Assembly: GCA_964348615.1 (NCBI GenBank)
Contig: CAYGDE010000003.1
Location: forward strand, 1 to 35,708
DNA: 35,708 nucleotides
DNA from: an uncultured Gammaproteobacteria bacterium
GTDB lineage: Bacteria; Patescibacteriota; Microgenomatia; Curtissbacterales; GWA2-41-24
Reading direction: 5' to 3'
Part shown: in pieces, positions 7,392 through 29,006 of the stretch
Position numbering within the stretch: the first letter of the stretch is position 1
Layout: each line of letters begins with the position of its first letter
Notes under the pieces: model-generated
Told to the model about the DNA's origin: nothing
The model's database searches: none
The model's input: only the letters and a program-made list of their open reading frames with translations
Made by a program: the position numbers and the translations under genes

Positions 7392-8386
7392 ATGAGTTGT
7401 TCGATTGCTTTAGCTATTTTCAGACTATCGTGATAAAGCGGGAAGCTTGTGTTGATAAAATCCCCTTCCAGTATTTTACCACCAAACGCCAGTAAATTTT
7501 TCCTGTCGTACTGGACGTATTTATATTTTAGACCTTTTGGAATTTTTGGTGCGTAATTTGTGTTTATTAAGATTTTATCAAAGATATTCTTTTGGACGTG
7601 TTTTTCTATTGTCTCTAGATAGTCTGAAGCCCGAAAGTTTGGCGTTTCGAAAGATTTGTTGGTTGTATTTAGAATAAATATTTTCTTGGCTTTTGATTTT
7701 ATAAATTCTTTTTTGATCTGCGAAACTATAAGAACGGGTAAAATTGTGGTAAAAAGGTCTCCTGGCCCGGCAATTAGTACATCTGCTTCGCGAATAGCTT
7801 CAATGGTTACTTTGTAGGCCTTGGCGCCTTCAGGGTCTATGTGTACCTCTTTTAAGGCTTTTGAGCCTGGAAATTTTCCAAGGTCTATGTTTTGTTCACC
7901 GTAAACTTTTTGTCCATCTTTATTTTTTGCCCAAATGTTAACGTTATCAATTGTTGCCGGAAGAACCCTCCCGCTAGGGGAAATTATTTTGGAAAATTCT
8001 TCGAGAGCCTTGTTCGTGTCACCCTTGTATATATCTGTTAAGGCAACAAAAATTAAATTTCCAAGTTTTTGTCCGCTTAAATCGGTGTCCTTTCCGTACC
8101 TTTTGCCTGCAAAACGATAGCGAAAAAGCAGATTTAAAACAGATTCTTCTGAGGAAAGCGCTGTGAGGCAGTTGACCAAATCTCCAGGCGGAAGGACAGA
8201 AAAAGCACGCCTAAGACGCCCCGCAGAGCCGCCATCGTCGGCCATAGAAACGATTGCAGTAAGCTGATATGGATAATCTCTTAACCCCTTTAGCACTTGT
8301 GCTGTTCCGACGCCCCCACCCAGACAAACGACTTTTCTGGGTTTTTCTGGGAGTTCAAGATAGTGTCTTACAAACGAAGCTAGCAT
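7388..8386 (-). CDS. YvcK/CofD-like (UPF0052) gluconeogenesis-factor family protein
   Basis: VVCLGGGVGTAQVLKGLRDY...LTAIVSMADDGGSAGRLR...PGDLVNC is the YvcK/2-phospho-L-lactate-transferase-like family pattern. 4-nt overlap with secG. Confidence 0.85.
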   Translation of the reverse strand: MLASFVRHYLELPEKPRKVVCLGGGVGTAQVLKGLRDYPYQLTAIVSMADDGGSAGRLRRAFSVLPPGDLVNCLTALSSEESVLNLLFRYRFAGKRYGKDTDLSGQKLGNLIFVALTDIYKGDTNKALEEFSKIISPSGRVLPATIDNVNIWAKNKDGQKVYGEQNIDLGKFPGSKALKEVHIDPEGAKAYKVTIEAIREADVLIAGPGDLFTTILPVLIVSQIKKEFIKSKAKKIFILNTTNKSFETPNFRASDYLETIEKHVQKNIFDKILINTNYAPKIPKGLKYKYVQYDRKNLLAFGGKILEGDFINTSFPLYHDSLKIAKAIEQLI

Positions 8387-10165: not shown

Positions 10166-10179
10166 TTTTTTGTATTTTA

Positions 10180-12102
10180 CTAAATCCCGGGGATCTTGTG
10201 TTTTTTTTGGTGAAACTTTTTGTATAAATGTAAACCAGCGATTGTTAAAAGTATTGCAATTGAAGTACCTGCCAAAAAGTTTGGGGAGATTATCAGAAAA
10301 TAAATAGGGACAAGTGCCACACTTTTTACAATATACGTATCTTTATAAGAAAGAATTATGTCTTTTTTGGTTGAAGTAAAAAAACTTGGTGTTTGAATTT
10401 TGTATCTGTACTCTCTTTTGGAAAATGGGGGCATAAGCCCAGGGTTAAATTGTGAGTCACCAGTGATTTTAAGATCGGTTTGAAGTTTGATGTCGTCTGG
10501 TAAAAGTGCGGTATTACCAACATTTTGGATAATTGCTTTTGCTTGGGTTGGAACTCCAGAAATTATCTTGGGAGGCAGAATAAGATCCAGTTTTGGTACT
10601 TGTGACGGTTGAGGTAGTTCTTGTGCAAACGAGACAAAAACTAAATTTTTGTCTAAGTCCGACTGTCTCCTGTATGTTCCTGGCGGGTTTGGGCTTTGGG
10701 AATTTACTCCCTTTTGAACAAAAGTAACATGATTAAAATCCATTTTGTTAAAATAGTCGATTCCGCCGGAGGTTGCACCCCATGTCGGATCTACCTGAAC
10801 CCAGCCCTGTTCGTCGTCCCAATATTGAGGCCATGAATGCAAAACGTCCTTTTCAATTGCCAAAGAAAGTGGACGCAGGCGTTCGTTTTGTGTATATGCA
10901 TAACCTTCGATTTCTCTTGCCGGTATCTTGGCACTTCTTGCAAGTGCTATAAAAAGGTCGGAAAATTCCAAACATATAGCGTCGTCTGGTTCTTGGGCTG
11001 CACGGGCTGCGCCTTTCCTGGCGGCTTTTGGTGCAGTACCGTTGTTGATAAAACTTATGTAGTCGGAAACTTGCTGCTGCTTGCGGTTTTGGTTGTACTT
11101 TAAATAGGTGGTTACAAAATTGTAGATATTTTCTGGAGTCTTAAGTTCGTTAGCTTTATCTTTTATCCATGCATTATCTGTTTCCCAGTAACTTTGGGGT
11201 TGAGTGTAAATATTTTTTTCTTTTTCACTCAGAGTTTGCGTGCTATTTTTTTGGGGTTTACTGAAAACTTCTGCATAGCCGGAAACCAGAATGTCTATGG
11301 TCTTTTTTGGCGTGAGTTTATACGTTGCAAGGTAATTTCCGTCTGGATCTACAATGACATCGTCTGGTTTTGGATCAATTTTTTCGATGACAATTTTTTG
11401 GTAATTATTGTCCGGTGGCAGACTAATTTGGCCAATTTGGGTTGTGAGGTTTTTGTTTTCCAGATAGTATTTTAGGTTAAAAGAAAACACTTGTTTTTCA
11501 CCAAAAGACATGGATATACCTGATTTTGTTAATTGATCTTTTTCGAACGTAAAGTTTTGAGTTGAAAAATCTGTGCTTTGGGATTGCGGTTGTGGGAGCG
11601 CATATGCGTTTGGACCAAAAATTTTTGGTACAGAAACAGTTGCGTCGTAAGTTCCTATATCTTGAGAATCTGCAACCTTTGGAATAGAAACCTCCCAGAT
11701 TTGGCCAGATTTGGTGGAAAGTTCTGTTGAGGTGTAAGAAAGTGTCCAAGGCAAGGTTTTGTCTATACCAATTACCCTTTGATTAAATTTAACAGAAATG
11801 GAAGTAACATTGTCATTAAAGTTTACAGTTGTTTCCATAGGACCTGCCGAATCTTGAGCTTTAACATTTTCTATTTTTGTAGAACCAATTTTTAGTTCAA
11901 ATTTGTCCGCATAGAAATTGGTAGTTTTATTTTTGAGGGTTATTTGCTGCGTGACATTAGCTTTTCCAAAGATGTCCACCTGATAAGAAACTTTATAGTC
12001 AGTTTGAAATTCACCTTGGGCGGCAGCAGGAGTTGGTAGTACGTAGTAGGTAGTGAGTAGCAGGAAAAGGATTAGGACAAGGCGGACGAAAAGGCGCATC
12101 AA
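10180..12102 (-). CDS. Secreted/membrane-anchored transglutaminase-like cysteine protease-fold protein
   Basis: Signal peptide and a C-terminal TM. Cys-His-Asp core: DDAICLEFSDLF ... VLHSWPQYW ... WVQVDPTWG. Confidence 0.8.
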   Translation of the reverse strand: MMRLFVRLVLILFLLLTTYYVLPTPAAAQGEFQTDYKVSYQVDIFGKANVTQQITLKNKTTNFYADKFELKIGSTKIENVKAQDSAGPMETTVNFNDNVTSISVKFNQRVIGIDKTLPWTLSYTSTELSTKSGQIWEVSIPKVADSQDIGTYDATVSVPKIFGPNAYALPQPQSQSTDFSTQNFTFEKDQLTKSGISMSFGEKQVFSFNLKYYLENKNLTTQIGQISLPPDNNYQKIVIEKIDPKPDDVIVDPDGNYLATYKLTPKKTIDILVSGYAEVFSKPQKNSTQTLSEKEKNIYTQPQSYWETDNAWIKDKANELKTPENIYNFVTTYLKYNQNRKQQQVSDYISFINNGTAPKAARKGAARAAQEPDDAICLEFSDLFIALARSAKIPAREIEGYAYTQNERLRPLSLAIEKDVLHSWPQYWDDEQGWVQVDPTWGATSGGIDYFNKMDFNHVTFVQKGVNSQSPNPPGTYRRQSDLDKNLVFVSFAQELPQPSQVPKLDLILPPKIISGVPTQAKAIIQNVGNTALLPDDIKLQTDLKITGDSQFNPGLMPPFSKREYRYKIQTPSFFTSTKKDIILSYKDTYIVKSVALVPIYFLIISPNFLAGTSIAILLTIAGLHLYKKFHQKKHKIPGI

Positions 12103-12133
12103 TTAATAGTATCAAGTATCGCCTGCTTATGTA

Positions 12134-15061
12134 TCAAGTACTTGTGTATTTTGTACTGTTTTGGTTTCTTTGCTCCCGTGCGAGAAATTGCCCTGTATAT
12201 GATTTTGGGGCTTTGGCAATTTGCTCCGGAGTACCCTCGGCCACTATTTGTCCCCCTCCATCCCCGCCTTCCGGCCCAAGATCGATAATCCACTGAGCAT
12301 TTTTAATAACATCGAGATTGTGCTCGATAACTATTACTGTATTTTTTTGTTCAACAAGCCTTGTAAGAATAGAAAGTAGTCTCTCGATATCCGCAAAATG
12401 CAATCCGGTTGTAGGTTCGTCCAAAATATAAACAGTTTTCCCCGTTCCTCGCTTGGAAAGTTCGGTTGCAAGTTTTATTCTTTGAGCTTCACCGCCGGAA
12501 AGAGTTGGTGCTGGTTGTCCAAGGTGAATATATCCAAGACCAACATCGTAAATTGTTTCGAGTTTTGTTTTGATCTGAGGAATGTTTTCAAAAAACTTTA
12601 AACCTTCTTCTGTGGTCATGTCCAATACCTGCGAAATGTTTTTGTCTTTATAGTGAATTTCCAAAGCCTCTTCGTTGTATCTTTTGCCATTGCAAACTTC
12701 ACAATCAACATAAACATCCGGTAAAAACTGCATTTCAATTTTAACTTGTCCTGCGCCTTCGCAGGCTTCACATCTGCCTCCCTTTACATTGAAGGAAAAC
12801 CTGCCGGGTTTGTAGCCACGGATTCTGGCGTCGGTTGTTTTGGCAAAAAGATCACGCACGAAGGTAAAAACTCCTGTGTAAGTGGCTGGATTTGACCTTG
12901 GTGTTTTTCCAATTGGCGATTGGTCAATTAATATTACTTTGTCTATGTTTTCTACCCCCAATATCCCTTCGTGCGCCCCGGGTTTTTGTCGGGATTTGTA
13001 GATTTCTTTTGCAAGTGCGTGATACAAAATATCGTGGATAAGAGTAGATTTGCCTGATCCCGAAACGCCTGTTATACAAATGAATTTCCCAAGCGGAAAG
13101 TTTACATCAACATTTTTAAGGTTGTGATCTTTTGCACCGACGATAGTTATGGAGTTGCCTGACGACTGTTGACTATTTTCTGTTGAATGTGAACCTTTTA
13201 CTGTGATTTTCTTTTTTCCCGACAAGTATTTCCCTGTGATGGAGTTCGGGTCTTTCATTATGTGCTGGACATTGCCTTGAGAAATAATATGCCCTCCGTG
13301 TTCCCCTGCGGCGGGACCAAAATCTAAAATTTCGTCAGATTCCATCATCATGTCGCGGTCGTGTTCAACAACAATCACTGTGTTATCCAAATCCCTAAGC
13401 CTTTTTAGCGTTGTAATTAGGCGGTTATTGTCTCTTTGATGAAGACCAATCGACGGTTCGTCTAAAACATATAAAACCCCGGAAAGGCCGGAACCAATTT
13501 GGCTTGCCAAACGAATTCGCTGGGCTTCACCGCCTGCTAAGGTATTGGCGGTTCTGGAAATTGTTAGATACTCTAGGCCTACGTCTATCAAAAAACCAAC
13601 CCTATTTAAAAGTTCTTTAAAAATTGGCTTGCCTATTTGTATTTCCCTGTCAGAAAATAAATTTTGTGAGTTTTGGCTTAGCATTTTAAGCCACGAGTGT
13701 AAATTTGTAATACTTAGGGCTGCAATTTCGGCTATTGATTTGTGGTCGATAGTAACTGAAAGTGCTTCTGGCTTTAGCCTTGCACCAAGACATGTATCAC
13801 AAACATCTATCCTCATAAATTTTTCAATTTCTCCCCTTACATAATCGGATTCTGTTTGCGCGTATCTTTTTTCCAAATTTGTCATTACGCCTTCGAAAGT
13901 TGTGTTCCATGTTGTCATTTTTCCAAAACGGTTTTGTCCTTTGACTTTATAAATTTGGTTTTCTGTGCCTTTTAAAATAATGTCTCTTTCTTCTCTTGAA
14001 AGTTCTTGCGTGTCGAGATTTATGTCTATTTTGTGCTCTTTGCAGACTTGTTCAAGTACCTTCCAGCTCCAAGAATCTGTTTGCACAATTCGTGCCCAGG
14101 GCAAAATTGAACCTTCGGCTATTGATAGATTCAGGTTCAGTATCAAATCCGGGTCTACCTTTCTTATTGCGCCCAAGCCGTTGCAGGCAGGGCACGCCCC
14201 ATGTGGGGAATTAAAAGAAAATGTACGCGGTTCAATTTCTGGTAGTGAAATATTGTCAACGGGGCAGGCAAATTTTTCGCTAAAGACGTGGTCTTCCATT
14301 TCTTTGGGGATTTCGGGTAGGTCGAAGGATTTGTCGCCTATTTTGGAAACGATTATTGTACCTTCCCCTAGGTTTAGCCCCTGCTCGACTGCGTCGGAAA
14401 GCCTTTGTTTTTCGGCGGGTAAATTCATTTTATCGATAACAGCTTCTATGGAATGCTTGTTGGTTTTAATCAGGATGAAATCCTCGTCTGTACTTTTTAT
14501 TTGGCCGTCCACCCGTACCTGGCGGTAACCTTTTTTTGCGACGTCTTTGAACAGGTCTTTAAATTCTCCTTTGCGGTCTCGGACTATTGGTGCCAGTATT
14601 AAAATTCTAGTTGGTAGTTTGGAGTTGGTAGTGTGTAGTTTTTCGATTTCACCCACTATTTGGTCTTTGGATTGGTGGGCAATTTCGCGTCCGCATATTG
14701 GACAATGCGGGTGGCCAACTCTGGCAAATAAAAGCCTTAAATAGTCGTATATTTCGGTTACTGTACCAACCGTTGACCTTGGGTTATGAGAGGTCGATTT
14801 CTGGTCAATCGATATTGCCGGGGAAAGACCTTCTATTAAATCAACGTCGGGTTTGTCCATTACACCCAAAAATTGACGGGCATAAGAGGAAAGGGATTCA
14901 ACGTAGCGCCTTTGACCTTCGGCGTAAATAGTGTCAAAAGCTAGAGATGATTTTCCCGAGCCTGAAATGCCTGTAAAAACCACAAGTTTGTTTTTGGGAA
15001 TTTCTACTGATACGTTTTTTAGGTTGTGCTCTCTGGCACCTTTGATAATTATTTTTTCCAC
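12134..15061 (-). CDS. uvrA: Excinuclease ABC subunit A (UvrA)
   Basis: 975 aa. GAREHNLKN, two Walker A motifs ([18 protein letters not shown]), Zn-finger CxxC pairs, LSGGEAQRI twice. GTG start preceded by AAGAGGG. Confidence 0.97.
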
Positions 15062-15144
15062 GACAAAAACCCTCTTTCGCCTTCTTTGTTAGCAAAAGAC
15101 GAGAACTCAAAATTCTAGCATTAAAAGCAAGTGTGGAGCAAGGG

Positions 15145-17145
15145 TTATTGTTGACCTTTGAGCATTAGTGCTTGGTCTCGCAAGACCGCAGCTTTTTCGA
15201 AGTCTAGGGTGCGCGCTGCGTCCTTCATTTCACGCATTAAGACTTTAATTAATCGCTGTTTGTCGTCTGCCATAAGGCTTCCTTCTTTGGCCCTTTCGAC
15301 CGCGGATTGAATAACCGAATCGCGGTATATTTGTGTTTGATCTTCCTTATTCTTTTCGCGCTTTACTAATTTTTCGCGAATAGGTTTGTCTATAGAAATT
15401 GGGGTGATGTTATGCTGCTTGTTGTATTTTGTCTGGATTTTCCTTCTCCTTTGCACTTCGTCTATGGCCCGCTGCATAGAACCCGTTATATTGTCCGCGT
15501 AGAGAATGACTTGCCCTTCAAAATGACGGGCAGCACGACCCATTGTTTGGATCAAGGATGTTTCTGAACGTAAAAAACCTTCCTTGTCAGCATCTAAAAT
15601 GGCAACAAGCGATACTTCTGGTAAATCCAAGCCTTCCCGCAATAGGTTGATGCCGACTAAAACGTCATAATTTCCCAGACGTAGGTCGTCTAAAATGTCA
15701 GAGCGGTCTAAAGTTTGAACTTCCGAATGTAAATATTGAACTTTTATTTTTCGTTCCTCTAAGTATTTAGAAAGTTCTTCGGCCATTCTTTTTGTAAGAG
15801 TTGTAACAAGAACCCGTTGTTTTTTTTCAACACGTTTGTTGATTTCTTTGATTAGGTCTTCTATTTGGCCTTTTGACTTCCTAATTGAAATCTCGGGATC
15901 AATTAGGCCGGTTGGTCTTATGATCTGTTCGACAATCTGCTGAGATAGATTCAGTTCGTATTGGGCTGGTGTTGCCGATGTATAGATGACTTGATTTATT
16001 TTTCTTGCAAACTCTTCAAACTTAAGAGGCCGATTGTCGTATGCCGAGGGAAGGCGAAAGCCAAAATCCACAAGCATCTCTTTCCTGGCCCTGTCCCCGT
16101 TATACATGCCATTAATTTGGGGAATGGTCATATGAGACTCATCGATTATCAATAAGTAATCTTTCGGGAAATGTCCAATCAGGGAAAATGGTGGGTCTCC
16201 CGGATTTCTGCCATCGAAATACCTGGAATAATTTTCGATCCCTTTGCAATACCCTAGAGTTTGCATCATTTCGATATCGTAGTTTGTGCGCTGGTTTAGG
16301 CGATGGGCTTCCAACCCTTTGCCCATTTTTTCCAGTTCCAAAAGCCTTTCTTTTAGTTCTTGTTTTATCGATTCTATTGCCAAATATGTGGATTGGTCAG
16401 AAGCAACATAGTGTTTGGCCGGATAAAGAAATGCGGTATCTTGTGATTCTATTGTATTGCCAGTTATTGGATGGATGATTTCGATTTTTGAAAGTGTTTG
16501 ATTTTTAAAAGTTAGCCTTATGCCGTTGTTTTCGTATGCCGGCCAAAGTTCTATGTTTTCTCCCCTTACTCGATATGCTCCCCTTTTAAAATCGGCATCG
16601 TTTCTTTCATACTGAAGTTTGGCAAAGTTTTTCAGCAAATCTTCTCTTGCCCACGTTTGTTCCTTTTCCAAAACCATGCGGGCGTTTTGATATTCTTGCG
16701 GGGAACCCAGGTTGTAGATTGCCGAAACAGACGCGACTACAATTACGTCTTTTCTAAGTGACAAGTTTGTGGTGGCAGCAAGACGAAGACGGTCGATCTC
16801 TTCGTTTATTTCTGTCTCCTTTTCGATATAAGTGTCCGTTGAAGGTTTGTATGCCTCTGGTTGGTAGTAGTCGTAGTATGAAACAAAATAATTTACAGAA
16901 TTTTGAGGGAAAAATTCATGAAATTCCTGGTAGAGTTGGGCTGCTAGGGTTTTGTTATGGGAAATCACAAGCGTGGGTTTTTGAACGTTTTGAATTACGT
17001 TGGCGATTGAAAATGTTTTACCGGATCCGGTTACACCCAGAAGAGTTTGGTGTTTAAAACCTTTGTTGAGACCACTTGTGAGCTTTTGGATTGCTTCTGG
17101 TTGGTCTCCGGTTGGTTTGTATGCTGAGGTTAGTTTAAATTTCAT
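15145..17145 (-). CDS. uvrB: Excinuclease ABC subunit B (UvrB)
   Basis: 666 aa. YKPTGDQPEAI, GVTGSGKT, DESH, and a C-terminal UVR domain (LDFEKAAVLRDQ). Confidence 0.97.
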   Translation of the reverse strand: MKFKLTSAYKPTGDQPEAIQKLTSGLNKGFKHQTLLGVTGSGKTFSIANVIQNVQKPTLVISHNKTLAAQLYQEFHEFFPQNSVNYFVSYYDYYQPEAYKPSTDTYIEKETEINEEIDRLRLAATTNLSLRKDVIVVASVSAIYNLGSPQEYQNARMVLEKEQTWAREDLLKNFAKLQYERNDADFKRGAYRVRGENIELWPAYENNGIRLTFKNQTLSKIEIIHPITGNTIESQDTAFLYPAKHYVASDQSTYLAIESIKQELKERLLELEKMGKGLEAHRLNQRTNYDIEMMQTLGYCKGIENYSRYFDGRNPGDPPFSLIGHFPKDYLLIIDESHMTIPQINGMYNGDRARKEMLVDFGFRLPSAYDNRPLKFEEFARKINQVIYTSATPAQYELNLSQQIVEQIIRPTGLIDPEISIRKSKGQIEDLIKEINKRVEKKQRVLVTTLTKRMAEELSKYLEERKIKVQYLHSEVQTLDRSDILDDLRLGNYDVLVGINLLREGLDLPEVSLVAILDADKEGFLRSETSLIQTMGRAARHFEGQVILYADNITGSMQRAIDEVQRRRKIQTKYNKQHNITPISIDKPIREKLVKREKNKEDQTQIYRDSVIQSAVERAKEGSLMADDKQRLIKVLMREMKDAARTLDFEKAAVLRDQALMLKGQQ

Positions 17146-17165
17146 TGAAACTTTATTATATCAGC

Positions 17166-17180
17166 AAACAAACTTTGTTT
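17166..17180. promoter_or_regulatory. 15-bp perfect palindrome AAACAAA-C-TTTGTTT in the uvrB/lexA divergent control region (candidate operator)
   Basis: Seen directly. On the uvrB strand it lies immediately upstream of a TATAAT box (17160-17155) that sits 9 nt from the uvrB ATG. An outer CTTTG-N6-CAAAG inverted repeat overlaps it. Confidence 0.3.
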
Positions 17181-17240
17181 TTACAAAGTATCAGCCGTTT
17201 TTTATGTTTGGATGGTTATTGGATTATTCTGATTTGGGTA

Positions 17241-17269
17241 TTGACAAGTTCGGGTTTTGTTTGTATATT
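17241..17269 (+). promoter_or_regulatory. lexA promoter TTGACA-17 nt-TATATT, 6 nt upstream of ATG 17276 (leaderless)
   Basis: Consensus -35 at 17241-17246 and -10 at 17264-17269, with no Shine-Dalgarno before the ATG. Confidence 0.5.
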
Positions 17270-17275
17270 TTAGTT

Positions 17276-17893
17276 ATGGCAATAACTCTTTACCGAAGGC
17301 AGAAACAAATCCTCGAATTTCTCAGCGATTATATCAACAAACATGGCAATGCGCCCACTTTGGTAGAAATTGCCAAAAAACTTGGAGTTAGTTCTTTAGC
17401 TACAGTTCACGAACATTTGCAGACATTGGAAAAAAAAGGTCTCATTAAAAGATCGATTGGAATTTCTAGAGGTATTGAGCTTTTGGACCAGAAAATTAGC
17501 AAAATGGTAAAAGGCGTAGAGCTTCCACTTTTAGGTTTTATTGCAGCGGGTTCCCCAATAGAACCTTTTACCGACCCCAATGCCACTTTTGCAGTTACTC
17601 CAAACATGGTTACACCTCAAAAGAAATCTTATGTATTACAAGTAAAGGGAGACTCGATGATAGAAGACGGAATTTTAGACGGTGATTTCGTAGTTGTTGA
17701 AGAGACAAAAATAGCCAGAGACGGTGATATCGTGGTTGCAATGGTAAACAATGGTGTAGTTACATTGAAACGTTTTTTTAAGGAGACAGACAGAATAAGG
17801 CTTCAGCCTGCAAACGCTTCAATGCAACCTATTTATGCTAAAAACGTTACTATTCAGGGGAAAGTTACGTCTGTAATACGAAAGTATAATTAA
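17276..17893 (+). CDS. lexA: LexA repressor (S24 autopeptidase)
   Basis: MAITLYRRQKQILEFLSDYINKHGNAPTLVEIAKKLG winged-helix N-terminus, AAG cleavage site (GFIAAGSPIEP), GDSM Ser and LKRF Lys of the catalytic dyad. The ORF-track start at 17000 overlaps uvrB and is rejected. Confidence 0.9.
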   Translation: MAITLYRRQKQILEFLSDYINKHGNAPTLVEIAKKLGVSSLATVHEHLQTLEKKGLIKRSIGISRGIELLDQKISKMVKGVELPLLGFIAAGSPIEPFTDPNATFAVTPNMVTPQKKSYVLQVKGDSMIEDGILDGDFVVVEETKIARDGDIVVAMVNNGVVTLKRFFKETDRIRLQPANASMQPIYAKNVTIQGKVTSVIRKYN

Positions 17894-19850: not shown

Positions 19851-19878
19851 TTGCGCCGGAATGTTGTGGGTATATAAT
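19851..19878 (+). promoter_or_regulatory. Putative promoter TTGCGC-16 nt-TATAAT, 8 nt upstream of ATG 19887
   Basis: -35 at 19851-19856 and -10 at 19873-19878, with no Shine-Dalgarno before the start codon. Confidence 0.35.
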
Positions 19879-19886
19879 TCTAATCT

Positions 19887-21674
19887 ATGATTGACAGAGA
19901 ACTCCCTAGTGTAGGCTTGATGGATCGAGTTCGTGTAGTCGGTAGACACGAGGGTTTGATAGATGCTTACGTTCCTCTTGAACTCATTTCCAGAGAAGGT
20001 GTCGCAGTGGATGAAACACATGTTAGGGATCTTGCAAAATCAATTTCGTTAGAAACAAATGGTGTATATAACGGGCAGCTGTCTCCTATCATTTTGGGTG
20101 ATGTAGCTGGACGTGATAAGTTTGCAATAATAGACGGTTTTCACAGAACTCCTGCGCTGGAGTCTTTAGGTCGGACCGAAGCTTATTGCACTATTAAAGA
20201 AAATTGCACTTGGGAGAATGTTATAGATCTTAGGATTACCTCAACAAGCACACATAAGATTGTGAGATTTCCAAGGCTTATTGGGTGGATGACAGAATCA
20301 TGGTCATTTTCCCCATGGTCAGATAAAATTACTGTGAATCAGGCCTTTGCAATTTCCGTACAAAACAGTACGGCCATCGGAAAAAAATTAGGCTTAGATG
20401 CCGATGACGTTTCCGGTATCACGGATTGGGTGAACGTTAAATGCACTCAATGGAAATATAAACCTGGAAGCATCGCAAGATATTTGTCGATAGCAAAAAA
20501 TGCGGATCCAGAGTTGGTCAGTTCTGTCCGTGATTCTAGAGAAAGTGGTGTACCAAATGCTTTAACCACGAACCATATCGCTGCTCTTTCAAGTATTTTG
20601 CCAGAGCAGTATGAGTTTCAGCGGCTTGTAGCTTCGGTTGTAGATGCTGAAAATTTGACCATTCCAAAAACCAGAATCCTTGCTACTTTTATATCTCAGG
20701 CTGGAAGTGCCTTAGAAGCTCGAAGGATAATTTCTACAGGAATGTGGAGATCTGTTACTACTGTAGAAAGAGCAAGAGGAAAAAAAGAGAAGACCAGGTT
20801 TAGTGAAACTCAGGAGTTAATCGATAAAATCTTTGAAACTGAACTGGAGATTGCAAGATTGTCTATAGAGAATGCCGTATTGTCTGGCAGATACAAGTTT
20901 AATTTAAAGGATTCGATTGAGAATCTTCCTTCTGCTCAAAGGGAAGTTGCAAGGTTAAGGCTCGTTGAGGGTTTTTCTCTTGCTGATACGGCCCGAATAC
21001 TTGGGAAGGAAATTAATAATGTAAAAGTCTTACAATCAATGGCTATAGGGAAACTTATAAAAAGAGATGCTGTAGACGTTTCCCATGATTCTGTGAGCGA
21101 ACCATTTGAGCTGGTTTCTGACCTTCTGGCGCAGGATGAAAAAGTAATAACTTCAAGTGAAATTGAAGTTTTTGGAAACAAACTACGAGAAATTGTACCA
21201 GTTATTACTGCATTTCTTAGATCGAAAGGTATGAAACCTGAACGAATAATGTCTGCCACAACAGAGATTATTATAGACTCCTACTCTGCTTTAGGTCGGG
21301 CATCAGACCAACCAAATACCAGCAGCTCAGACGAGATCCAGCATCTGCTTATTTCAACTATTAGTGATGTACTTTCTAAATTTACTGAAGAAGACCCACG
21401 GAAAGACTTGGAACAACGAAACGTGGAAGTCAAACGCATTACAACAATTATTGGTGAGATTGAAGATGATCTGCGAAATAAGGATAAAGTGAAAAATTAT
21501 TTGTCTTTATTGCCTGCTACATCAAGAAGGGACTTTGTTTTGGCCGAATTTTTTGGCTTAGCACCATTTGAAATTGCGAAAGTTCGAAACGTCAACCTGA
21601 CAGGTGTAACCCGTTCATTGGCCCGCGCTCGTGCCCTTCTTTTAGAAAACATGGTCGAGGATTACGTATCTTAA
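19887..21674 (+). CDS. ParB/sulfiredoxin-like N-terminal domain protein fused to sigma-70 region-4 HTH and an ECF-like sigma2-sigma4 module
   Basis: 595 aa. Residues ~63-95, GQLSPIILGDVAGRDKFAIIDGFHRTPALESLG, form a ParBc-type DGxHR motif. Residues ~347-393, LPSAQREVARLRLVEGFSLADTARILGKEINNVKVLQSMAIGKLIKR, are sigma region 4.2-like. Residues ~430-505 are region-2-like. Residues ~541-588, LPATSRRDFVLAEFFGLAPFEIAKVRNVNLTGVTRSLARARALL, form a second region 4. Confidence 0.75.
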   Translation: MIDRELPSVGLMDRVRVVGRHEGLIDAYVPLELISREGVAVDETHVRDLAKSISLETNGVYNGQLSPIILGDVAGRDKFAIIDGFHRTPALESLGRTEAYCTIKENCTWENVIDLRITSTSTHKIVRFPRLIGWMTESWSFSPWSDKITVNQAFAISVQNSTAIGKKLGLDADDVSGITDWVNVKCTQWKYKPGSIARYLSIAKNADPELVSSVRDSRESGVPNALTTNHIAALSSILPEQYEFQRLVASVVDAENLTIPKTRILATFISQAGSALEARRIISTGMWRSVTTVERARGKKEKTRFSETQELIDKIFETELEIARLSIENAVLSGRYKFNLKDSIENLPSAQREVARLRLVEGFSLADTARILGKEINNVKVLQSMAIGKLIKRDAVDVSHDSVSEPFELVSDLLAQDEKVITSSEIEVFGNKLREIVPVITAFLRSKGMKPERIMSATTEIIIDSYSALGRASDQPNTSSSDEIQHLLISTISDVLSKFTEEDPRKDLEQRNVEVKRITTIIGEIEDDLRNKDKVKNYLSLLPATSRRDFVLAEFFGLAPFEIAKVRNVNLTGVTRSLARARALLLENMVEDYVS

Positions 21675-23273
21675 CTATTCCAATAAATTTCGGCCTGTCA
21701 TTTGAGAAGGTTTGGGGATGTTTAATAAGCCTAAGATTGTTGGTGCAACGTCGGCCAGTATTCCTTGAGTAAGCTGGATGGATTTGCCCTTAAATTCTTT
21801 TGTACAAATAATAAGGGGCGCTGGATTTGCATTGTGTTGAGTTTCGGCATTACCAAGAGAATCTAGCATTTGTTCCGCATTTCCGTGGTCTGAGGTAATT
21901 ACCAAAGCGCCGCCAACTGCAAGTACCGTTTTTTCTAAAATACCCAAGTGAAGGTCTATGCACTTTACGGCTTCAACTGCTGCATGTAAATTTCCCGTAT
22001 GACCCAACATATCGGCGTTGGCGAAGTTTACAACAATAAATTCATAAACACGGCTTTGGATTCTTTTTATTAACTGTTTTGTCATTTCAGGTGCTGACAT
22101 GTCGGGTTTTAGGTCGTACGATGCAACTTTTGGCGAATTAACCAAAAGCCGATCTTCACCTACAAACGGCATTTCTTTCCCCCCATTTAAAAAATATGTA
22201 ACGTGCGCATATTTTTCTGTTTCCGCAATATGAAATTGTCTTTTGCCCCTTTCTGAAAAAACCCTGGCAATTGGCATAGGAATTTCTTCTTTTTCGAAAG
22301 AAACTGCGGAAACCTGAAGACTGCTTTGGTAGTTTGTAAGCGTGACTACGAAAAGGTCCTGCAGTTTTGTGCCTCGGTCAAAAGTACTGACAATATCCCC
22401 TGATGCAGTTTTTACTTTTTCAAAATCATCAAGTACAAATGCTTTGACAATTTGCCTTGCGCGGTCTGGACGAAAGTTAAAAACAATTATGCTGTCGCCT
22501 GCTTTTATGGGCCCTTTAGGTTCGGCGTTTTGGTTTACAATCATTGTCGGTTTGATAAACTCATCCGTTATCCCTTCTGTGTAGGAAATTTCAATTGCAC
22601 CAACCGGATCGTAACTTTTATTTTGTCCTTTTCCCAAAAGTGTCATATATGCCTCTTTTGTTCTTTCCCACCTATTGTCCCTGTCCATTGCAAAGTACCT
22701 TCCGGAAATCGTGGCAACAATACCTAGGTTTTGGGCATTTATTTTTTTTAAAACTTCGAACATATATGCTTTTGCGGATGTTGGCGGACTATCGCGACCA
22801 TCAGTAAAAAGATGTATTTTTACATTTTGCTGGGGAAAGTGGGAAGCTTTTACAAGTTCCAAAATTGCAAAAAGGTGGTTGGTACTACTGTGTACTATCC
22901 CAGAACTTAAAAGTCCCATTATGTGAATATCGGATTTGTTGTTTTGAGCGTGTTCTATTGCTTGGGCAAGTGCTTCATTGTCGTAAAAGGTGCCATTATC
23001 AATGGATGCATTTATTCTCATTAAGTCGCCAAATACGACTTTCCCAGCGCCGATGTTTAGGTGCCCTACTTCGCTATTTCCCGCTTTTTTCGCCGGAAGG
23101 CCAACACTCGAACCGGAAGTTTGTAAGTATGTGTGAGGGTATGAAAACCAAAGCTTATTAAAGTTTTTTGGGTTCGCTTGGGTTATTGCATTGCCAGGGT
23201 AATTATTTGCAATTCCCCATCCGTCTAAGATGCAAAGAACCAAGGGTTTTATTTTGAACGTAGTTTTTAGCAT
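21675..23273 (-). CDS. gpmI: 2,3-bisphosphoglycerate-independent phosphoglycerate mutase
   Basis: 532 aa. LCILDGWG, GNSEVGHLNIGAG, HLFTDGRD, TSDHGNAE motifs. Confidence 0.95.
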   Translation of the reverse strand: MLKTTFKIKPLVLCILDGWGIANNYPGNAITQANPKNFNKLWFSYPHTYLQTSGSSVGLPAKKAGNSEVGHLNIGAGKVVFGDLMRINASIDNGTFYDNEALAQAIEHAQNNKSDIHIMGLLSSGIVHSSTNHLFAILELVKASHFPQQNVKIHLFTDGRDSPPTSAKAYMFEVLKKINAQNLGIVATISGRYFAMDRDNRWERTKEAYMTLLGKGQNKSYDPVGAIEISYTEGITDEFIKPTMIVNQNAEPKGPIKAGDSIIVFNFRPDRARQIVKAFVLDDFEKVKTASGDIVSTFDRGTKLQDLFVVTLTNYQSSLQVSAVSFEKEEIPMPIARVFSERGKRQFHIAETEKYAHVTYFLNGGKEMPFVGEDRLLVNSPKVASYDLKPDMSAPEMTKQLIKRIQSRVYEFIVVNFANADMLGHTGNLHAAVEAVKCIDLHLGILEKTVLAVGGALVITSDHGNAEQMLDSLGNAETQHNANPAPLIICTKEFKGKSIQLTQGILADVAPTILGLLNIPKPSQMTGRNLLE

Positions 23274-23281
23274 AGAAACTA

Positions 23282-24535
23282 TTACGAAAGTTCATGTTCT
23301 ATTTCCAAAAGCCGATTATATTTTGCTACGCGTTCACCCCTGGCAGGTGCCCCAAACTTTGCGTAGTCTGCACCAATTCCTACGGCGAAATCGGCGATAA
23401 AATCATCATTTGTTTCGCCAGACCTGTGAGAAACAACCAACTTAATTGCCGATTTTTTTGCAAAGCTAACTACCTCTAATGTTTCTGTAATTGTGCCTAT
23501 TTGGTTTGGTTTAATAACAATTGCGTTGCAAGCTTTTTGCTCAACTGCCTTTTGCAGCCTTTGCAAGTTTGTTGTGGTTAAATCATCTCCCACAATTAGT
23601 GTGTCTGTGCCAAGTTTTTTTGTAATATCCTGCCAGCTATTCCAATCTTCTTCCGAAAGCGGGTCTTCTACCGAAAGCAGATGGTATTGTTCGTTTATGG
23701 CAATGTAAAATTCGATAAGGTCGGAAGGCGAAAGAGGTATTGGCCGGTCTTTTAACCTGTAACTGTCGCCCGAGTGAAAATTTGAGGCAGCTGCATCTAA
23801 ACTAAAAAATAGGTCAATTCCCAACTTATAATTTGCACTATTCACCGCCTCCTCAATCATTTTGAGTCCGTCTAGATTAGAATACAGGGTCGGTGCAAAC
23901 CCCCCTTCGTCTCCCAAAAGTGCGGAGGCGCTATGAAGTTTTAGTGTTTCTTTAAGCGCGTGATAACTCTCAACGCCAACCTTTAGGCTTTTGGAATATG
24001 AGCTTGATTTTGGCGGAACAATCATAAATTCTTGAAAATCTAGGTTCATATTGCCATGTTTGCCGCCATTTAAAATATTGAACATTGGTGTGGGTATTGT
24101 AAATTGATTAGTTTTTTGCCCAGAAAGTTGCGAAATGTATTGGTAAAGTGGAAGTTTTTGTGAAACGGCTTGTGCTTTTGCGATTGCGCCAGACAGGGAA
24201 AGAATAGTGTTTGCGCCCAGATTCTTTTTTTCGGAAGAACCGTCTTCGGCTATCATCATTGAATCTAGAGCTTTTTGATTTGCAGCGTCTTGGCCTATTA
24301 ATTTTGGCGCAAGGTCTTTTGAAATTTTTTCAAGACAATTTAAAACTCCTAACCCAGCGTATCTTGCAGAATCTTTGTCTCTTAACTCCGTAGCTTCATT
24401 TTTACCTACAGAAGAGCCGGAAGGTACGGAAAAGACGCCAACTGCGCCATCTTCCAAAGCGATTATTGTTTCAATTGTTGGGTTGGCGCGGCTATCTATG
24501 ATTTCCCGGGCAATAATTTTTTTTATCTTAGCCAT
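23282..24535 (-). CDS. eno: Enolase
   Basis: IIAREIIDSRANPTIE N-terminus, SHRSGETNDDFIADFAVG, KYNRLLEIE. Confidence 0.97.
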   Translation of the reverse strand: MAKIKKIIAREIIDSRANPTIETIIALEDGAVGVFSVPSGSSVGKNEATELRDKDSARYAGLGVLNCLEKISKDLAPKLIGQDAANQKALDSMMIAEDGSSEKKNLGANTILSLSGAIAKAQAVSQKLPLYQYISQLSGQKTNQFTIPTPMFNILNGGKHGNMNLDFQEFMIVPPKSSSYSKSLKVGVESYHALKETLKLHSASALLGDEGGFAPTLYSNLDGLKMIEEAVNSANYKLGIDLFFSLDAAASNFHSGDSYRLKDRPIPLSPSDLIEFYIAINEQYHLLSVEDPLSEEDWNSWQDITKKLGTDTLIVGDDLTTTNLQRLQKAVEQKACNAIVIKPNQIGTITETLEVVSFAKKSAIKLVVSHRSGETNDDFIADFAVGIGADYAKFGAPARGERVAKYNRLLEIEHELS

Positions 24536-26810
24536 TTTTTGAAATTAGTTTTCTTTCTGCATCGTAAATTATTTGGCGGGTTATATCAATCTTGTCCGGA
24601 TTTACGGAAATTGAATTTATACCCCAGTCTACCAGTTTTTCAGTTAGTTCTGGGTAAAAAGACGGTGCTTGGCCGCAAATTGAACAGGTAATATTGTATT
24701 CTTTACAAGTTTTTATGACTCTTTGCAGCGCCCAAAGGACAGATTTGTCCATTTCCCAAAATTCGCTTGCAACTTCTTCATTGTCTCTGTCTGTTCCTAA
24801 AATAAGCATGGTTAAGTCGTTGGACCCAATTGAGATACCATCTACACCAACTTTTATAAAGTCTTCAAGACGAATAATGTTCGTTGGCAATTCGGCCATC
24901 ATATAAAACTTGAAGTCCTTGTCTTCAAACATACCTGCTTCTTGGGTGATATCCCTAACTGCTTTTAGCTCTTCGGGTGTTCTTACAAAAGGGATCATGA
25001 GATAAATATTTTTGTGCTTTTTTCTGACTCTTTTTAAAACTTCAAGTTCAAGTTTGAATATGTCTGGGTCTTTAAGATATCGAAATGCCCCTCTGTAACC
25101 GAGCATAGGATTCGATTCTTTCGGCTCATAACTTTCGCCGCCTTTTAAATGCCTATACTCATTAGATTTCAAATCGCTTGCCCTATAAATTACCGGCCTT
25201 GATCCAAAAGCTTTACCAAAAATTTCTAAACCTTTTTGGAAAAGACTAATAAATTCCTCCTGTCTTTTTTCTGCTAAAAACTTTTTAGGGTGAGTGCCTA
25301 TCTGTGCTAACATAAATTCTGCTCTTAAAAGCCCTACACCGTCTACATTATAGGCTGCAATATGGTGTGCAATTTGCGGCTCAGCCAGGTTAACATAAAG
25401 CTTTGTTGCAGTTTTTAAAACACTGCTTTTTTTAATTAGGTTTTTTTCTGCGCTTGCGACTTTTTCTCCCTTTTGTAATCCCCCTTTGTAAACAGCTCCT
25501 TTTGCTCCGTCAACGGTTACAACCATTCCCTCTTTCAATTTTTTGGTAGCATCTTGAGTGCCTACTACACAAGCAATTCCGAGTTCTCTGGAAACGATTG
25601 CTGCATGCGAAGTTCGACCTCCTTTATCTGTGACTATTGCAACCGCTTTTTTCATAGCAGGAACATAGTCTGGATTTGTCATTTCTACAACCAAAACATC
25701 GCCTTTTTGGACGCGGTTAAGTTCTTTGGGGGATTTAATTATGACAACTTTGCCTGATGCTATTGCTGGTGATGCTGGTGCACCAATTACAATCGGCTCT
25801 CTTGGATCGGATTTTTGCTTAAGATCTTCTGCTTTTTTTTGTAAATTTGGCTTTTGGTTTTTTATTGTTGTAATTGGCCGAGTCTGGACAATATAGAGTT
25901 TACCTTTTTCATATGCCCATTCGATGTCTTGCCCGAAATAATAATGGTCTTCAATTTTTTTACCAATCCTTGCCAACTCTTTAATTTTTTCGTCTGGAAG
26001 TTTTTGTGCTTTTTGAAAAGCTTTTGCAATCGGTATAAGCCTGTTGGCAGTTTTAGCTTTTACTAATTGTTTTTCCTGCGCAACAATATTTTTGTTTGTT
26101 ATCTCGAAGTTTTTTTTGCTTATTTCGTAGTGGTCGGGAGTTGCTTGACCACTTACTATCAACTCGCCAAGGCCAAAAACCGCCTCAACCGTAACGGTGT
26201 TTTTATCGTTTGTTACCGGATCCACAGTAAACATAACACCCGAGGTTTCTGACTGAACCATCAGTTGTACGGGCACTGCAATAGCAACTTTAAAGTGGTC
26301 GAATTTTTGCTGGACCCTATAAAAGATTGCCCTGGCTTCAAAAAGTGATGCCCATGCGCCAAGAATAGCTTCTATTAACTCTTTTTTACCCTTGATGTTT
26401 AAAAAGGTTGCTTGCTGTCCTGCGAAGGATGCGTTTGGCAAATCTTCTGCGGTTGCTGAGGACCGTACAGCTACTTGCGCATCATGTCCCTGGGAGAGTT
26501 CGTCGTAAAATTTGAAAATTTGTTGTTCTAGTTCTTTTTCTAGAGTTAAATTTTTAATCTCTTTTTGGCAAAGCAAAGCGGATTTTTGTAGGGCCAATGG
26601 GTCTTCGACATTAAGGCCGTAAAGAATCCCTTTTATCCGGTCTAAGGCACCTGAGGACTTAAAGATTTTCCTATACGCTTGGGCAGTTACAATAAAACCG
26701 TTTGGTACTGGGGCCCCTATTTTTGTCAGTTCACCTAAATTTGCACCTTTGCCGCCGACTTGATCTATGTCGTTTTTGTCTATTTGTAAAAACCAAACTA
26801 CATCTTCCAT
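24528..26810 (-). CDS. ppsA: Phosphoenolpyruvate synthase (pyruvate, water dikinase)
   Basis: 760 aa. ATP-grasp N-domain (VGGKGANLGEL), phospho-His domain GGRTSHAAIVSRELGIA, C-terminal PEP-utilising TIM barrel (ISIGSNDLT). Confidence 0.9.
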   Translation of the reverse strand: MEDVVWFLQIDKNDIDQVGGKGANLGELTKIGAPVPNGFIVTAQAYRKIFKSSGALDRIKGILYGLNVEDPLALQKSALLCQKEIKNLTLEKELEQQIFKFYDELSQGHDAQVAVRSSATAEDLPNASFAGQQATFLNIKGKKELIEAILGAWASLFEARAIFYRVQQKFDHFKVAIAVPVQLMVQSETSGVMFTVDPVTNDKNTVTVEAVFGLGELIVSGQATPDHYEISKKNFEITNKNIVAQEKQLVKAKTANRLIPIAKAFQKAQKLPDEKIKELARIGKKIEDHYYFGQDIEWAYEKGKLYIVQTRPITTIKNQKPNLQKKAEDLKQKSDPREPIVIGAPASPAIASGKVVIIKSPKELNRVQKGDVLVVEMTNPDYVPAMKKAVAIVTDKGGRTSHAAIVSRELGIACVVGTQDATKKLKEGMVVTVDGAKGAVYKGGLQKGEKVASAEKNLIKKSSVLKTATKLYVNLAEPQIAHHIAAYNVDGVGLLRAEFMLAQIGTHPKKFLAEKRQEEFISLFQKGLEIFGKAFGSRPVIYRASDLKSNEYRHLKGGESYEPKESNPMLGYRGAFRYLKDPDIFKLELEVLKRVRKKHKNIYLMIPFVRTPEELKAVRDITQEAGMFEDKDFKFYMMAELPTNIIRLEDFIKVGVDGISIGSNDLTMLILGTDRDNEEVASEFWEMDKSVLWALQRVIKTCKEYNITCSICGQAPSFYPELTEKLVDWGINSISVNPDKIDITRQIIYDAERKLISKNG

Positions 26811-27554: not shown

Positions 27555-27754
27555 TCGTCTTCTTTTAAGATCGTTGAGATTTTTTGATTAGCTTCGGTTA
27601 ATTTTTCTTTACAAATCTTGTGAAGCTTCACACCTTCTTCCAGAAGTTTTAGGCCATCTTCCAGATCTAAATCAGGGTCTTCCAGTTTTTCGACAATCTC
27701 TTCTAGCCTTTTTAAGGAATGGGTGAATGAAAATTCAGTCGAATTTTTTGTCAT
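27551..27754 (-). CDS. xseB: Exodeoxyribonuclease VII small subunit
   Basis: 67 aa. FSFTHSLKRLEEIVEKLEDPDLDLEDGLKLLEEGVKLHKICKEKL is the XseB pattern. Confidence 0.85.
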   Translation of the reverse strand: MTKNSTEFSFTHSLKRLEEIVEKLEDPDLDLEDGLKLLEEGVKLHKICKEKLTEANQKISTILKEDE

Positions 27755-29006
27755 ATTTTTCGGTTATTTTTGATTTTACCTTGCCGTCTTTGAATTGTAC
27801 TCCAATTTTTTGACCAACGACAAGGGTTTTTACGCTTTTTATAATCTTTCCATTTTCCCCGGTTGTAATTGAATAGCCGCGGGAAAGCGTATTTTCTGGC
27901 GAAAGCAGCCTGAGTGATTTATTTGCAGATTCTAGTTTTTGTTTTTGATTTAGAAGTTGCAGCTGTAGTTCTTTTTGAATTTCAGAAATAAGCCTATCTA
28001 CTTTTTCGGAGGCATCTGAAATAAGAAGTTTTTCCTGGCGTTTTAAACTTTCTTTTGCCAGAAGTAATTTATTGGGCAAATCCTTAAATGTATTTTTTGT
28101 CTGCTGAAGCATAAGATGCAGATGGTCAAGTTTTTGGAAGTTAGTTGTAAAGTAATAGGCCGATTTGGAACTTAGACGATACTTTATGGCATCTAAGTTT
28201 GAGAGAAATAAGCTGTATCCGGCAGTTACAATGTTTGCTGCATCCGTGGGTGTTGATGCTCGAACGTCTGCAGTCCATTCGGCCAACGATTCATTGGCTT
28301 CGTGACCGATTGCAACAACTGTTGGAGTTTGCATTTCGAAAATCGCCCTGGCGATTTGTTCGTCGTTAAAAGCGGCTAAATCTTCTAGGGACCCTCCTCC
28401 ACGGGTAATCACAATCACATCAAAGTTTTGTTCATCAACTGCAGCGAGCGCCTTGAGAATACTATTGATTGACTTTGGGCCCTGAACACGCACGTCGGCT
28501 GTTGTTAATTCGATTATGGGGAATTTGTCTATCGTATGCCGCCTGAAGTCATTCCATGCGTCCGAGCCTTGGGAGGTAACTATACAAACACGTTTTGGAT
28601 ATTTTGGAATTTCCTTTTTGTATTTTTTGTCAAATAGCCCTTCGGCCCTTAACTTTTTAATAAGTTCTTCAAGTTCCTTTTGCAGCGCACCCTCACCATA
28701 TTCTTCAATTCTGACTATTCTAAACTGGTATTTTCCCCATGGTTCATAGAGCGTGAGATTACCATAGGCCATAATTCTTTTACCTTCAATATTTGCATCA
28801 AAACCAGCCATTGCTTGGCCATCGGCGACGCAAGGAAGCACGGATTTTTCGTCTTTGATTTTTAAATAATAAAAACTAAAACTTGGGTGCTTCTTAAATT
28901 CACTAACTTCTCCTTCAACCCAAAAGATTAATTGCTCCAAAGTTTCTTTGGAGATGTGATTTACTTCACTTACTGTAAATATTTCTTTTCCGTCTATTTG
29001 CTTCAT
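27735..29006 (-). CDS. xseA: Exodeoxyribonuclease VII large subunit
   Basis: FTVSEVNHISKETLEQLIFWVEGEVSEF (OB-fold N-terminus), ITRGGGSLEDLAAFNDE, and a C-terminal coiled coil. 20-nt overlap with xseB. Confidence 0.9.
   Translation of the reverse strand: MKQIDGKEIFTVSEVNHISKETLEQLIFWVEGEVSEFKKHPSFSFYYLKIKDEKSVLPCVADGQAMAGFDANIEGKRIMAYGNLTLYEPWGKYQFRIVRIEEYGEGALQKELEELIKKLRAEGLFDKKYKKEIPKYPKRVCIVTSQGSDAWNDFRRHTIDKFPIIELTTADVRVQGPKSINSILKALAAVDEQNFDVIVITRGGGSLEDLAAFNDEQIARAIFEMQTPTVVAIGHEANESLAEWTADVRASTPTDAANIVTAGYSLFLSNLDAIKYRLSSKSAYYFTTNFQKLDHLHLMLQQTKNTFKDLPNKLLLAKESLKRQEKLLISDASEKVDRLISEIQKELQLQLLNQKQKLESANKSLRLLSPENTLSRGYSITTGENGKIIKSVKTLVVGQKIGVQFKDGKVKSKITEKYDKKFD

Follow-up and report, generated by a model that had tools for sequence, protein, structure and literature searches.

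A Patescibacteria family of ParB-like proteins with ECF-type sigma-like modules, possibly nucleotide-gated transcription factors

Can one polypeptide join the nucleotide-binding and DNA-binding domains of ParB to the domains of a sigma factor, and if so, what might it do? The question is raised by a 595-aa protein encoded in contig CAYGDE010000003.1 (assembly GCA_964348615.1), of which the 35,708 nt analysed here are called the window; GTDB places the source organism in Patescibacteriota (Curtissbacterales, GWA2-41-24). A first-pass annotation had read from the letters a fusion of a ParB/sulfiredoxin (Srx)-type domain, a sigma-70 region-4 helix-turn-helix (HTH) and a sigma2-sigma4 module like that of extracytoplasmic function (ECF) sigma factors. 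Profile searches, Foldseek structure comparison and conservation across a whole family uphold that reading, and all of the sequence elements that it quoted are present, DGFHR falling at residues 83-87. The domain order is ParB/Srx N-domain, ParB-type HTH, conserved helix, region 4, and a degenerate ECF-like sigma2-sigma4 module. Judged by sequence comparison, the protein belongs to a ParB-derived family of the Patescibacteria (Candidate Phyla Radiation, CPR) in which the ParB dimerisation domain has been replaced by a helix and an ECF-type sigma2-sigma4 module. Its parts are as follows.

19887..21674, plus strand: whole gene for the 595-aa ParB-like/sigma-like fusion, TAA stop included (open reading frame list, sequence)
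19959..20261, plus strand: ParB/Srx-fold nucleotide-binding domain, binding predicted, residues ~25-125 (Foldseek, hhalign, conservation, PHROG, NCBIfam)
20073-20087, plus strand: Box I-like loop GQLSP (pairs with ParB GILQP in hhalign)
20133-20147, plus strand: Box II DGFHR (pairs with ParB GERR in hhalign)
20262..20756, plus strand: ParB-type helical DNA-binding domain, residues ~126-290 (hhalign, Foldseek, model confidence about 90)
20463-20525, plus strand: HTH core, residues ~193-213, within the ParB-type DNA-binding domain
20799..20891, plus strand: family-conserved long amphipathic helix, residues ~305-335, ...ELEIARLSIENAVLSGRY (conserved in the alignment of close relatives)
20898..21062, plus strand: inserted sigma-70 region 4, residues ~338-392 (Pfam Sigma70_r4_2, PDB matches, BLASTP to a neighbouring ECF sigma in the closest relative)
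21147..21386, plus strand: degenerate ECF sigma2-like three-helix domain, residues ~421-500 (family profile, Foldseek of the C-terminal model)
21462..21662, plus strand: C-terminal sigma region 4, the family's ancestral copy, residues ~526-592 (weak Pfam match, consensus LPxLxxxxRRxLxL...IAQ, model confidence about 91-96)

The gene is one uninterrupted open reading frame (ORF), and it recurs. Two contigs from other ENA samples (metagenome assemblies) match this locus at 99.8% nucleotide identity and are free of indels, the first of them differing from the gene by three nucleotides and two amino acids. Nine more proteins, of 558-610 aa, align to it over their full length at 27-45% identity. The indel-free contigs rule out that the assembly made a chimera or that a frameshift joined a parB-like gene to a sigma gene; with the same full-length architecture found also in those homologues and in many sequence clusters, we regard the chance of such an artefact as negligible.

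Searches with the single sequence detect the ParB part weakly: the NCBIfam model for the serine kinase SerK matches residues 65-103 (E 2.6e-5), PHROG ParB-like families match residues 40-114 (E 1.1e-4), and Pfam ParB_N is matched in some relatives only. In the AlphaFold2 (AF2) model, residues 10-290 have a predicted local distance difference test score (pLDDT) of about 90, and the top Foldseek matches in PDB are Noc, ParB, PadC and KorB (E 1.6e-5 and above, probability 1.00 for the best, ~250 columns); the ParB structures are those of M. xanthus, C. crescentus, B. subtilis and T. thermophilus, and the KorB structures are 8qa8 and 8qa9. Sulfiredoxin and SerK rank after the ParBs and match the N-domain only. 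We also compared a three-sequence ParB alignment (PDB-verified sequences) with an 86-member alignment of the family using hhalign. The two are collinear across residues 29-272 (pairwise E 1.2e-3, HHsearch probability 19%), the alignment pairing GQLSP with the Box I loop GILQP, IIDGFHR with IVAGERR, KPGSIARYLSIAKNADPELV with the ParB HTH SRPHIANHLRLLTLPENI, and LTTNHIAAL with LSMGHGRTL, the GHARAL-like helix. By profile and by model, then, the N-terminal half is a ParB N-domain plus ParB-type HTH, minus the C-terminal dimerisation domain, and not a bare Srx fold. The ParBc-type domain of the first-pass annotation is borne out by these comparisons and by conservation of the GxxR motif; what had been called a helical HTH-like middle region does bear an HTH, but that description was too unspecific for a ParB-type DNA-binding domain.

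The target lacks the C-terminal dimerisation domain of ParB, to which Pfam and PDB searches gave no match; its 200-290 C-terminal residues consist instead of a helix and sigma-like domains. The segment at residues ~305-335 is modelled as one helix (pLDDT >90) and is 71% identical to that of the closest relative (P0002), and may be a dimerisation or docking element that stands in for the missing domain.

The sigma-like module at the C-terminus is recognised less readily in the target than in its relatives. For the target alone, Pfam Sigma70_ECF matches residues 525-587 at 17-18 bits, below the cut-off of 21.1, and TIGR02999 matches residues 452-589 (E 2.9e-4). A profile of ten family sequences, in comparison, matches full-length ECF sigmas, covering residues 18-184 of the 187 of SigW (E 8.5e-8) and matching also AlgU, RpoE, SigH and SigE; TIGR02937 (sigma70-ECF) is matched by seven of the ten close relatives (best E 2.6e-16). 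Many relatives keep the ECF region-2 signatures (DAED, W..R..N..D..R), as in PEDAEDIVSE... and ...FWMFRVVTNTAISKHRK. When residues 301-595 were modelled separately from a 57-sequence alignment, the model reached pLDDT 82, and its best 50 PDB matches were nearly all ECF or sigma-28-type sigmas, the exceptions including two PhyR chains. Two-domain matches of 170-195 columns were found to AlgU, SigW, CnrH, SigK and RpoE, the best E being a modest 9e-3; structures of region 4 alone fit at about 1 Å root-mean-square deviation, though the match table does not tell the two region-4 copies apart. Predicted structures thus agree with the first-pass annotation in both halves, Noc, ParB and KorB matching the N-terminal one and ECF sigmas the C-terminal model. 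The annotation's further statement that the last ~170 residues read like a stand-alone ECF sigma factor holds for the family profile and for the fold of the model, but the target itself falls below threshold and its sigma2 is degenerate, so that real sigma activity of this member is uncertain.

The region 4 that precedes this module has a different history. Pfam Sigma70_r4_2 matches residues 340-382 at 46.8 bits (E 2.3e-12, gathering cut-off 25.7), and the PDB sequence matches are to region 4 of BldN and SigD. It had been described as a textbook sigma region 4.2, and it is a real one, but it does not belong to the common layout of the family, being an insertion found in the target and P0002 only, absent from eight of ten close homologues and from the remaining 153 of 155 representatives. 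At the P0002 locus (L004) an ECF sigma gene sits between the family gene and gpmI.

L004 2462-3337, minus strand: 291-aa ECF sigma gene (Pfam r2 E 5.6e-15, r4_2 E 5.4e-12)

Regions 2 and 4 are plainly recognisable in this sigma, which extends for another ~100 aa at its C-terminus. The inserted region 4 matches its region 4 by BLASTP at E 5e-14, and over the core LP.AQREV..LR...G.S.ADTAR.LGK..NNV.V.QS.A..KL the two are ~64% identical (28/44), a stretch that takes in the HTH core and, within it, the presumed recognition helix. A tblastn search of the window with the L004 ECF sigma matched only the insertion itself (20841-21056). The simplest history that the sequences suggest is that region 4 was captured from an adjacent ECF sigma in the common ancestor, that sigma gene being absent at the corresponding position in the window. 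If so, the protein is probably steered by the captured copy to the -35 elements that the donor sigma uses.

How widespread is the architecture? When 1.84 billion representatives were searched exhaustively with HMMER, 368 clusters (50% identity) came up at E<=1e-30, and relaxing the limit to E<=1e-10 gave 494; most are of 500-650 aa, and many align end to end. The family is visible by exhaustive search; a word-indexed search with the 86-member profile gave only eight proteins, all already known. Among GTDB species representatives, all ten relatives are Patescibacteria, and the lineages include Curtissbacteria, Gottesmanbacteria, several Saccharibacteria and unclassified 'Patescibacteria group' metagenome-assembled genomes. 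Automatic database names are inconsistent ('ParB-like N-terminal domain-containing protein', 'sigma-70 family RNA polymerase sigma factor', 'hypothetical protein'). No family relative was found in IMG/VR viral contigs by pattern and tblastn search, and no PADLOC defence model matched the target. Foldseek against BFVD returned generic phage ParB-like proteins, the best being A0A6J5M246, a 538-aa 'ParB/RepB/Spo0J' protein of an uncultured Caudovirales phage (~660 columns); this protein may share the ParB-plus-sigma layout, the match being a structural one only.

The conserved core of the family is the N-terminal ~335 residues. G84, R87, R116 and R130 are invariant in both the 131-member and the 86-member alignment, W139 and Q245 also in the latter, and D83, H86, H123 and several tryptophans come close to invariance. 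Behind this core, a sigma-like module of ~185 aa occupies the C-terminal position in 77 of the 155 best representatives, about half; matches of an iterative C-terminal hidden Markov model that overlapped the N-module (residues ~230-420) in ~20 proteins are treated as drift and excluded from this count. Pfam matches to the tails of the 86 aligned members comprise Sigma70_r4_2 (28), Sigma70_r4 (14), Sigma70_r2 (7, best E 8.8e-11), the GerE/LuxR HTH (4) and a cyclic nucleotide (cNMP)-binding domain with a Crp HTH (2). Because the recognisable tails are sigma, GerE/LuxR HTH and cNMP-binding plus Crp HTH domains, the variable tail reads as a transcription-factor-type output wherever it can be recognised.

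We next consider how the gene is expressed. The first-pass annotation gave it its own promoter and a leaderless start.

19851..19878, plus strand: putative promoter, TTGCGC at 19851-19856, 16-nt spacer, TATAAT at 19873-19878 (read from sequence)

Both hexamers are there, but TTGCGC fits the -35 consensus at three of six positions only and the promoter is absent from the list produced by a consensus promoter scan. The ATG lies 8 nt downstream of TATAAT, an in-frame stop stands one codon upstream of it, and a Shine-Dalgarno sequence has no room; a leaderless mRNA is therefore plausible. TATAAT-like hexamers 6-10 nt before the start also occur at five distantly related homologues; their positions, and that of the window, are these.

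L003 ~7480-7503
L004 ~570-590
L005 ~240-263
L007 ~5075-5098
L011 ~5945-5967
window 19873-19886

This recurrence supports leaderless expression from a housekeeping-type promoter over autoregulation in the ECF style. No intrinsic terminator was seen after the gene, whose stop codon abuts the stop of the convergent gpmI. One perfect palindrome of 16 bp, AGTAATCCAGATTACT, stands at L007 (5048-5063), ~50 nt upstream of the start of the homologue and just ahead of a TTGACA/TATAAT pair; it may serve as an operator or terminate rplA, and the other loci do not show it.

The gene is flanked by genes for an RsmI-type methylase and a cofactor-independent phosphoglycerate mutase (iPGM, gpmI). Upstream lie NRAMP, lexA, uvrB, uvrA and uvrC, downstream eno, ppdK, xseB and xseA. 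The claim that it is a single-gene insertion between rsmI and gpmI is not supported, on two counts. Its GC content, 0.39-0.41, is the same as that of its surroundings, and L004 has the same rsmI-X-(ECF)-gpmI order, with RsmI 65% and the family protein 45% identical. Flat composition and shared gene order rule out a recent horizontal insertion, and point to a long-standing resident. Other family loci lie in unrelated housekeeping settings, between rplA and rplJ (L007), by tRNA genes or after rlmH. At L005 a tRNA-Met gene (147-219) stands 45 nt upstream of the family gene, and at L009 a tRNA-Arg gene stands upstream and a tRNA-His gene downstream (4958-5031, 6824-6897); such neighbours may have arisen by chance, or may point to earlier mobility.

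In search of partners, we compared neighbouring ORFs at 16 loci by all-against-all BLAST, and only the family itself occurred at three or more. Neither a ParA gene nor an anti-sigma or NepR-like gene is conserved beside the family gene at these loci, and the ParA-binding motif LG(R/K)GL is absent from the N-terminus of the target.

Several neighbours are recorded here for their own sake. A minus-strand DNA-repair cluster (uvrC, a transglutaminase-like gene, uvrA, uvrB) occupies 8903-17893 of the window, opposite a divergent lexA; the lexA ORF as called (297 aa) overlaps the uvrB start by ~146 nt, and its true start is probably internal. The P0009 homologue, too, has an S24-peptidase/IMS (umuDC-like) pair two genes upstream of it. 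Convergent to the family gene, on the minus strand at 21675-26810 and 27735-29006, are gpmI, eno, ppdK, a weak DNA_pol3_delta_C-like match, xseB and xseA.

The first-pass annotation knew of no characterised protein that fuses ParB and sigma domains. This no longer holds: a survey of the ParB-CTPase fold (PNAS, December 2025; PMC12704722) lists Sigma70 among the fused domains, and reports that a gut-phage ParB-fold/Sigma70 protein, uvig_297896_22, binds ATP in DRaCALA, a ligand-binding assay based on differential radial capillary action, the Box II arginine being required. The survey does not mention Patescibacteria and offers no functional mechanism for ParB/Sigma70 fusions; it was the only relevant paper in a literature search on ParB with ECF, sigma, Patescibacteria and Saccharibacteria, which gave nothing specific to the present family. 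The phage protein resembles ours in its GxHR-type Box II (GEHRVRA there, DGFHRTPA here), in being fused to a sigma-70-family domain and in lying outside parAB operons, and the GxHR Box II of the target also resembles those of the ATP binders tabulated in the survey (PMC12704722). It is set apart as a phage protein of which ATP binding alone has been described, whereas the present family is chromosomal and has a ParB HTH and a full ECF-like module.

Among ParB-type proteins that serve gene regulation, not partition, the nearest parallels are KorB of RK2, VirB of Shigella and BisD of ICEclc. According to published accounts, these are CTP-dependent sliding clamps that likewise combine a ParB N-domain with an HTH and regulate transcription, have no sigma domains, keep a GERR-type CTP pocket and a C-terminal dimerisation domain, and influence RNA polymerase either indirectly or by way of partners, KorA being an example. 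The target, in contrast, has Phe for the Glu of the pocket, no conserved Box III, a replaced C-terminal domain and covalently attached sigma domains.

On the sigma side, the ~185-aa sigma2-sigma4 module resembles the ECF (group 4) sigmas, SigW, AlgU and RpoE being covered nearly whole by the family profile. Some ECF groups are regulated by their own fused extensions and lack a separate anti-sigma gene, and the family is like them in lacking one. It differs from ECF sigmas in that the N-terminal extension, about 335-420 aa, is itself a DNA-binding ParB module, and the target differs further in its housekeeping-type -10 with no ECF autoregulatory promoter, its degenerate region 2 and its two copies of region 4. 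In PhyR a phospho-receiver switch is fused to a sigma-like domain, with NepR as the partner. The target shares with it a switch domain and a degenerate ECF-like sigma domain in one polypeptide, together with weak PhyR-family matches, but here the ParB fold would be the switch, a ParB HTH is present and no NepR-like partner was seen at the 16 loci. A looser analogy is late transcription in phage T4, where the sliding clamp gp45 activates the sigma factor gp55: there too a DNA-loaded clamp is coupled to a sigma factor, but gp45 and gp55 are separate, unrelated proteins, and the target is known as a single polypeptide in which clamp formation is not implied.

We propose, tentatively and with a probability of roughly 0.45, that the protein is a nucleotide-gated, DNA-tethered sigma-like transcription factor, acting in initiation or as a regulator, as its sequence and modelled fold suggest. 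The ParB half would bind a nucleoside triphosphate (NTP) through the invariant GxxR pocket, ATP being at least as likely as CTP, and would bind DNA through the ParB-type HTH. Engagement of the N-domains, driven by the NTP, would then shift the exposure or position of the sigma-like half, which would contact the RNA polymerase core, -35-type promoter DNA, or both. The protein would act self-contained, needing neither an anti-sigma partner nor ParA. In the lineage of the window, sigma2 has decayed and a region 4 has been captured, which suggests that the protein has moved away from a sigma role and instead targets the donor sigma's -35 elements or competes there. Nucleotide binding, DNA targets, RNA polymerase contact and the direction of regulation are predictions here. 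That the family constitutes a new class of transcription initiation factor, loading at sites like ParB, switched by ATP or CTP and itself the sigma that recruits the RNA polymerase core, we consider unlikely.

Several observations weigh against the proposed factor. The sigma half of the target has lost the region-2 signatures that many relatives keep (it reads PERIMSATTE... and ...HLLISTISDVLSKFT). Pfam bears out the sigma assignment only in part, giving the target Sigma70_r4_2 above cut-off but no Sigma70_r2 match. Identity to P0002 is 64% in the ParB N-domain, 71% in the conserved helix, 55% in the inserted region 4, 46% in the C-terminal region 4 and 45% in the HTH domain, but 22% in the sigma2-like domain. 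Because of the missing match, the lost signatures and this low identity, core binding and -10 melting may be gone in the target. The nucleotide pocket also departs from ParB. In the hhalign comparison F85 stands at the position of the catalytic Glu of GERR and H86 at that of the first Arg, and Box III ENLQR falls opposite IGWMTES, where neither N nor R is conserved; R116, H123 and R130 are (nearly) invariant instead. With Phe for Glu and Box III not conserved, a ParB-style, hydrolysis-timed clamp cycle is doubtful. PadC is a binding-only nucleotide switch, and by analogy a switch of that kind seems more plausible than a hydrolysis-timed clamp. Neither sequence nor AlphaFold3 predicts nucleotide specificity in this fold (PMC12704722). 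As to DNA targets, parS-like sites did not turn up: the short inverted repeats around the gene gave no such palindrome, and no perfect 7+0-2+7 palindrome is shared among the 16 loci. The full-length AF2 model has a predicted template modelling score of 0.48 and does not fix the relative placement of the domains. Finally, about half of the representatives carry other tails, mostly unannotated, so that the conserved function may reside in the ParB half alone.

In a rival explanation the protein would be a ParB-like DNA-binding regulator or nucleoid protein whose tail is only an extra HTH or dimerisation module and never a core-binding sigma; on DNA it might spread or form a clamp, and it would act in repression or organisation. 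The tail is indeed replaceable, GerE and cNMP-binding plus Crp HTH domains and many unannotated sequences taking its place, sigma2 of the target is fast-evolving as well as degenerate while the ParB N-domain is best conserved, and KorB, VirB and BisD are described as regulating transcription with no sigma domain. A plain HTH tail, however, needs no conserved sigma2, and many relatives retain region 2 (the seven Pfam r2 matches above); to our knowledge, core binding and -10 recognition are the only roles of that region. The two-domain ECF sigma match, moreover, covers the whole C-terminal module. We hold this explanation to be a doubtful one, though it deserves serious attention. A different use of the sigma fold, as in PhyR, would make the protein a mimic or decoy that sequesters an anti-sigma or competes for the -35 elements, or the beta flap, of a resident ECF sigma, with the ParB-fold nucleotide switch in place of the PhyR receiver domain. 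The degenerate sigma2 recalls PhyR, whose sigma-like domain is non-functional; the insertion is close in sequence to a genuine neighbouring ECF sigma4, there are weak PhyR_sigma-like/PhyR-family matches on residues 336-390, and the best structural matches are conformations from sigma/anti-sigma complexes. But the PhyR matches are far under cut-off (16 bits against 27), no conserved anti-sigma or NepR-like gene lies nearby, the extra region 4 is missing in most family members and the ParB HTH would be left with no role, and we think such a decoy quite improbable.

Partition itself, or a ParB/Srx-fold nuclease or kinase with incidental HTH domains, would account for the ParB fold, the ParB-type HTH and the similarity of the Box II region to SerK. 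The latter is limited to ~38 residues around Box II, however, and a canonical partition ParB would sit oddly with the absence of parA at the 16 loci and of the LG(R/K)GL motif, the ParB C-terminal domain and parS-like repeats, making both variants very improbable. We thus return to the nucleotide-gated, DNA-tethered sigma-like factor as the interpretation that we favour.

The family is distinct by its combination of features: it joins a full ParB N-terminal domain and HTH to a full ECF-like module, is encoded on chromosomes and occurs widely within a single bacterial radiation. The target appears further distinguished by its second, captured region 4. The proposal is directly testable in vitro, since there are many members to choose from (368 or more clusters at 50% identity), a single gene is involved and the protein is of soluble size. 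Switches of the ParB family have so far been tied to transcription indirectly, as in KorB, VirB and BisD, and the present fusion would be the most direct coupling of such a switch to RNA polymerase. Patescibacteria have small genomes and a poorly understood regulatory repertoire. If the family were, beyond our proposal, the new class of initiation factor that we consider unlikely, a covalent 'clamp or landing-pad plus sigma' would let these reduced genomes control promoter choice by nucleotide, with no anti-sigma, and in the lineage of the window the extra region 4 would retarget the protein to the regulon of another sigma. The capture of region 4 from a neighbouring sigma gene could illustrate how regulons are rewired.

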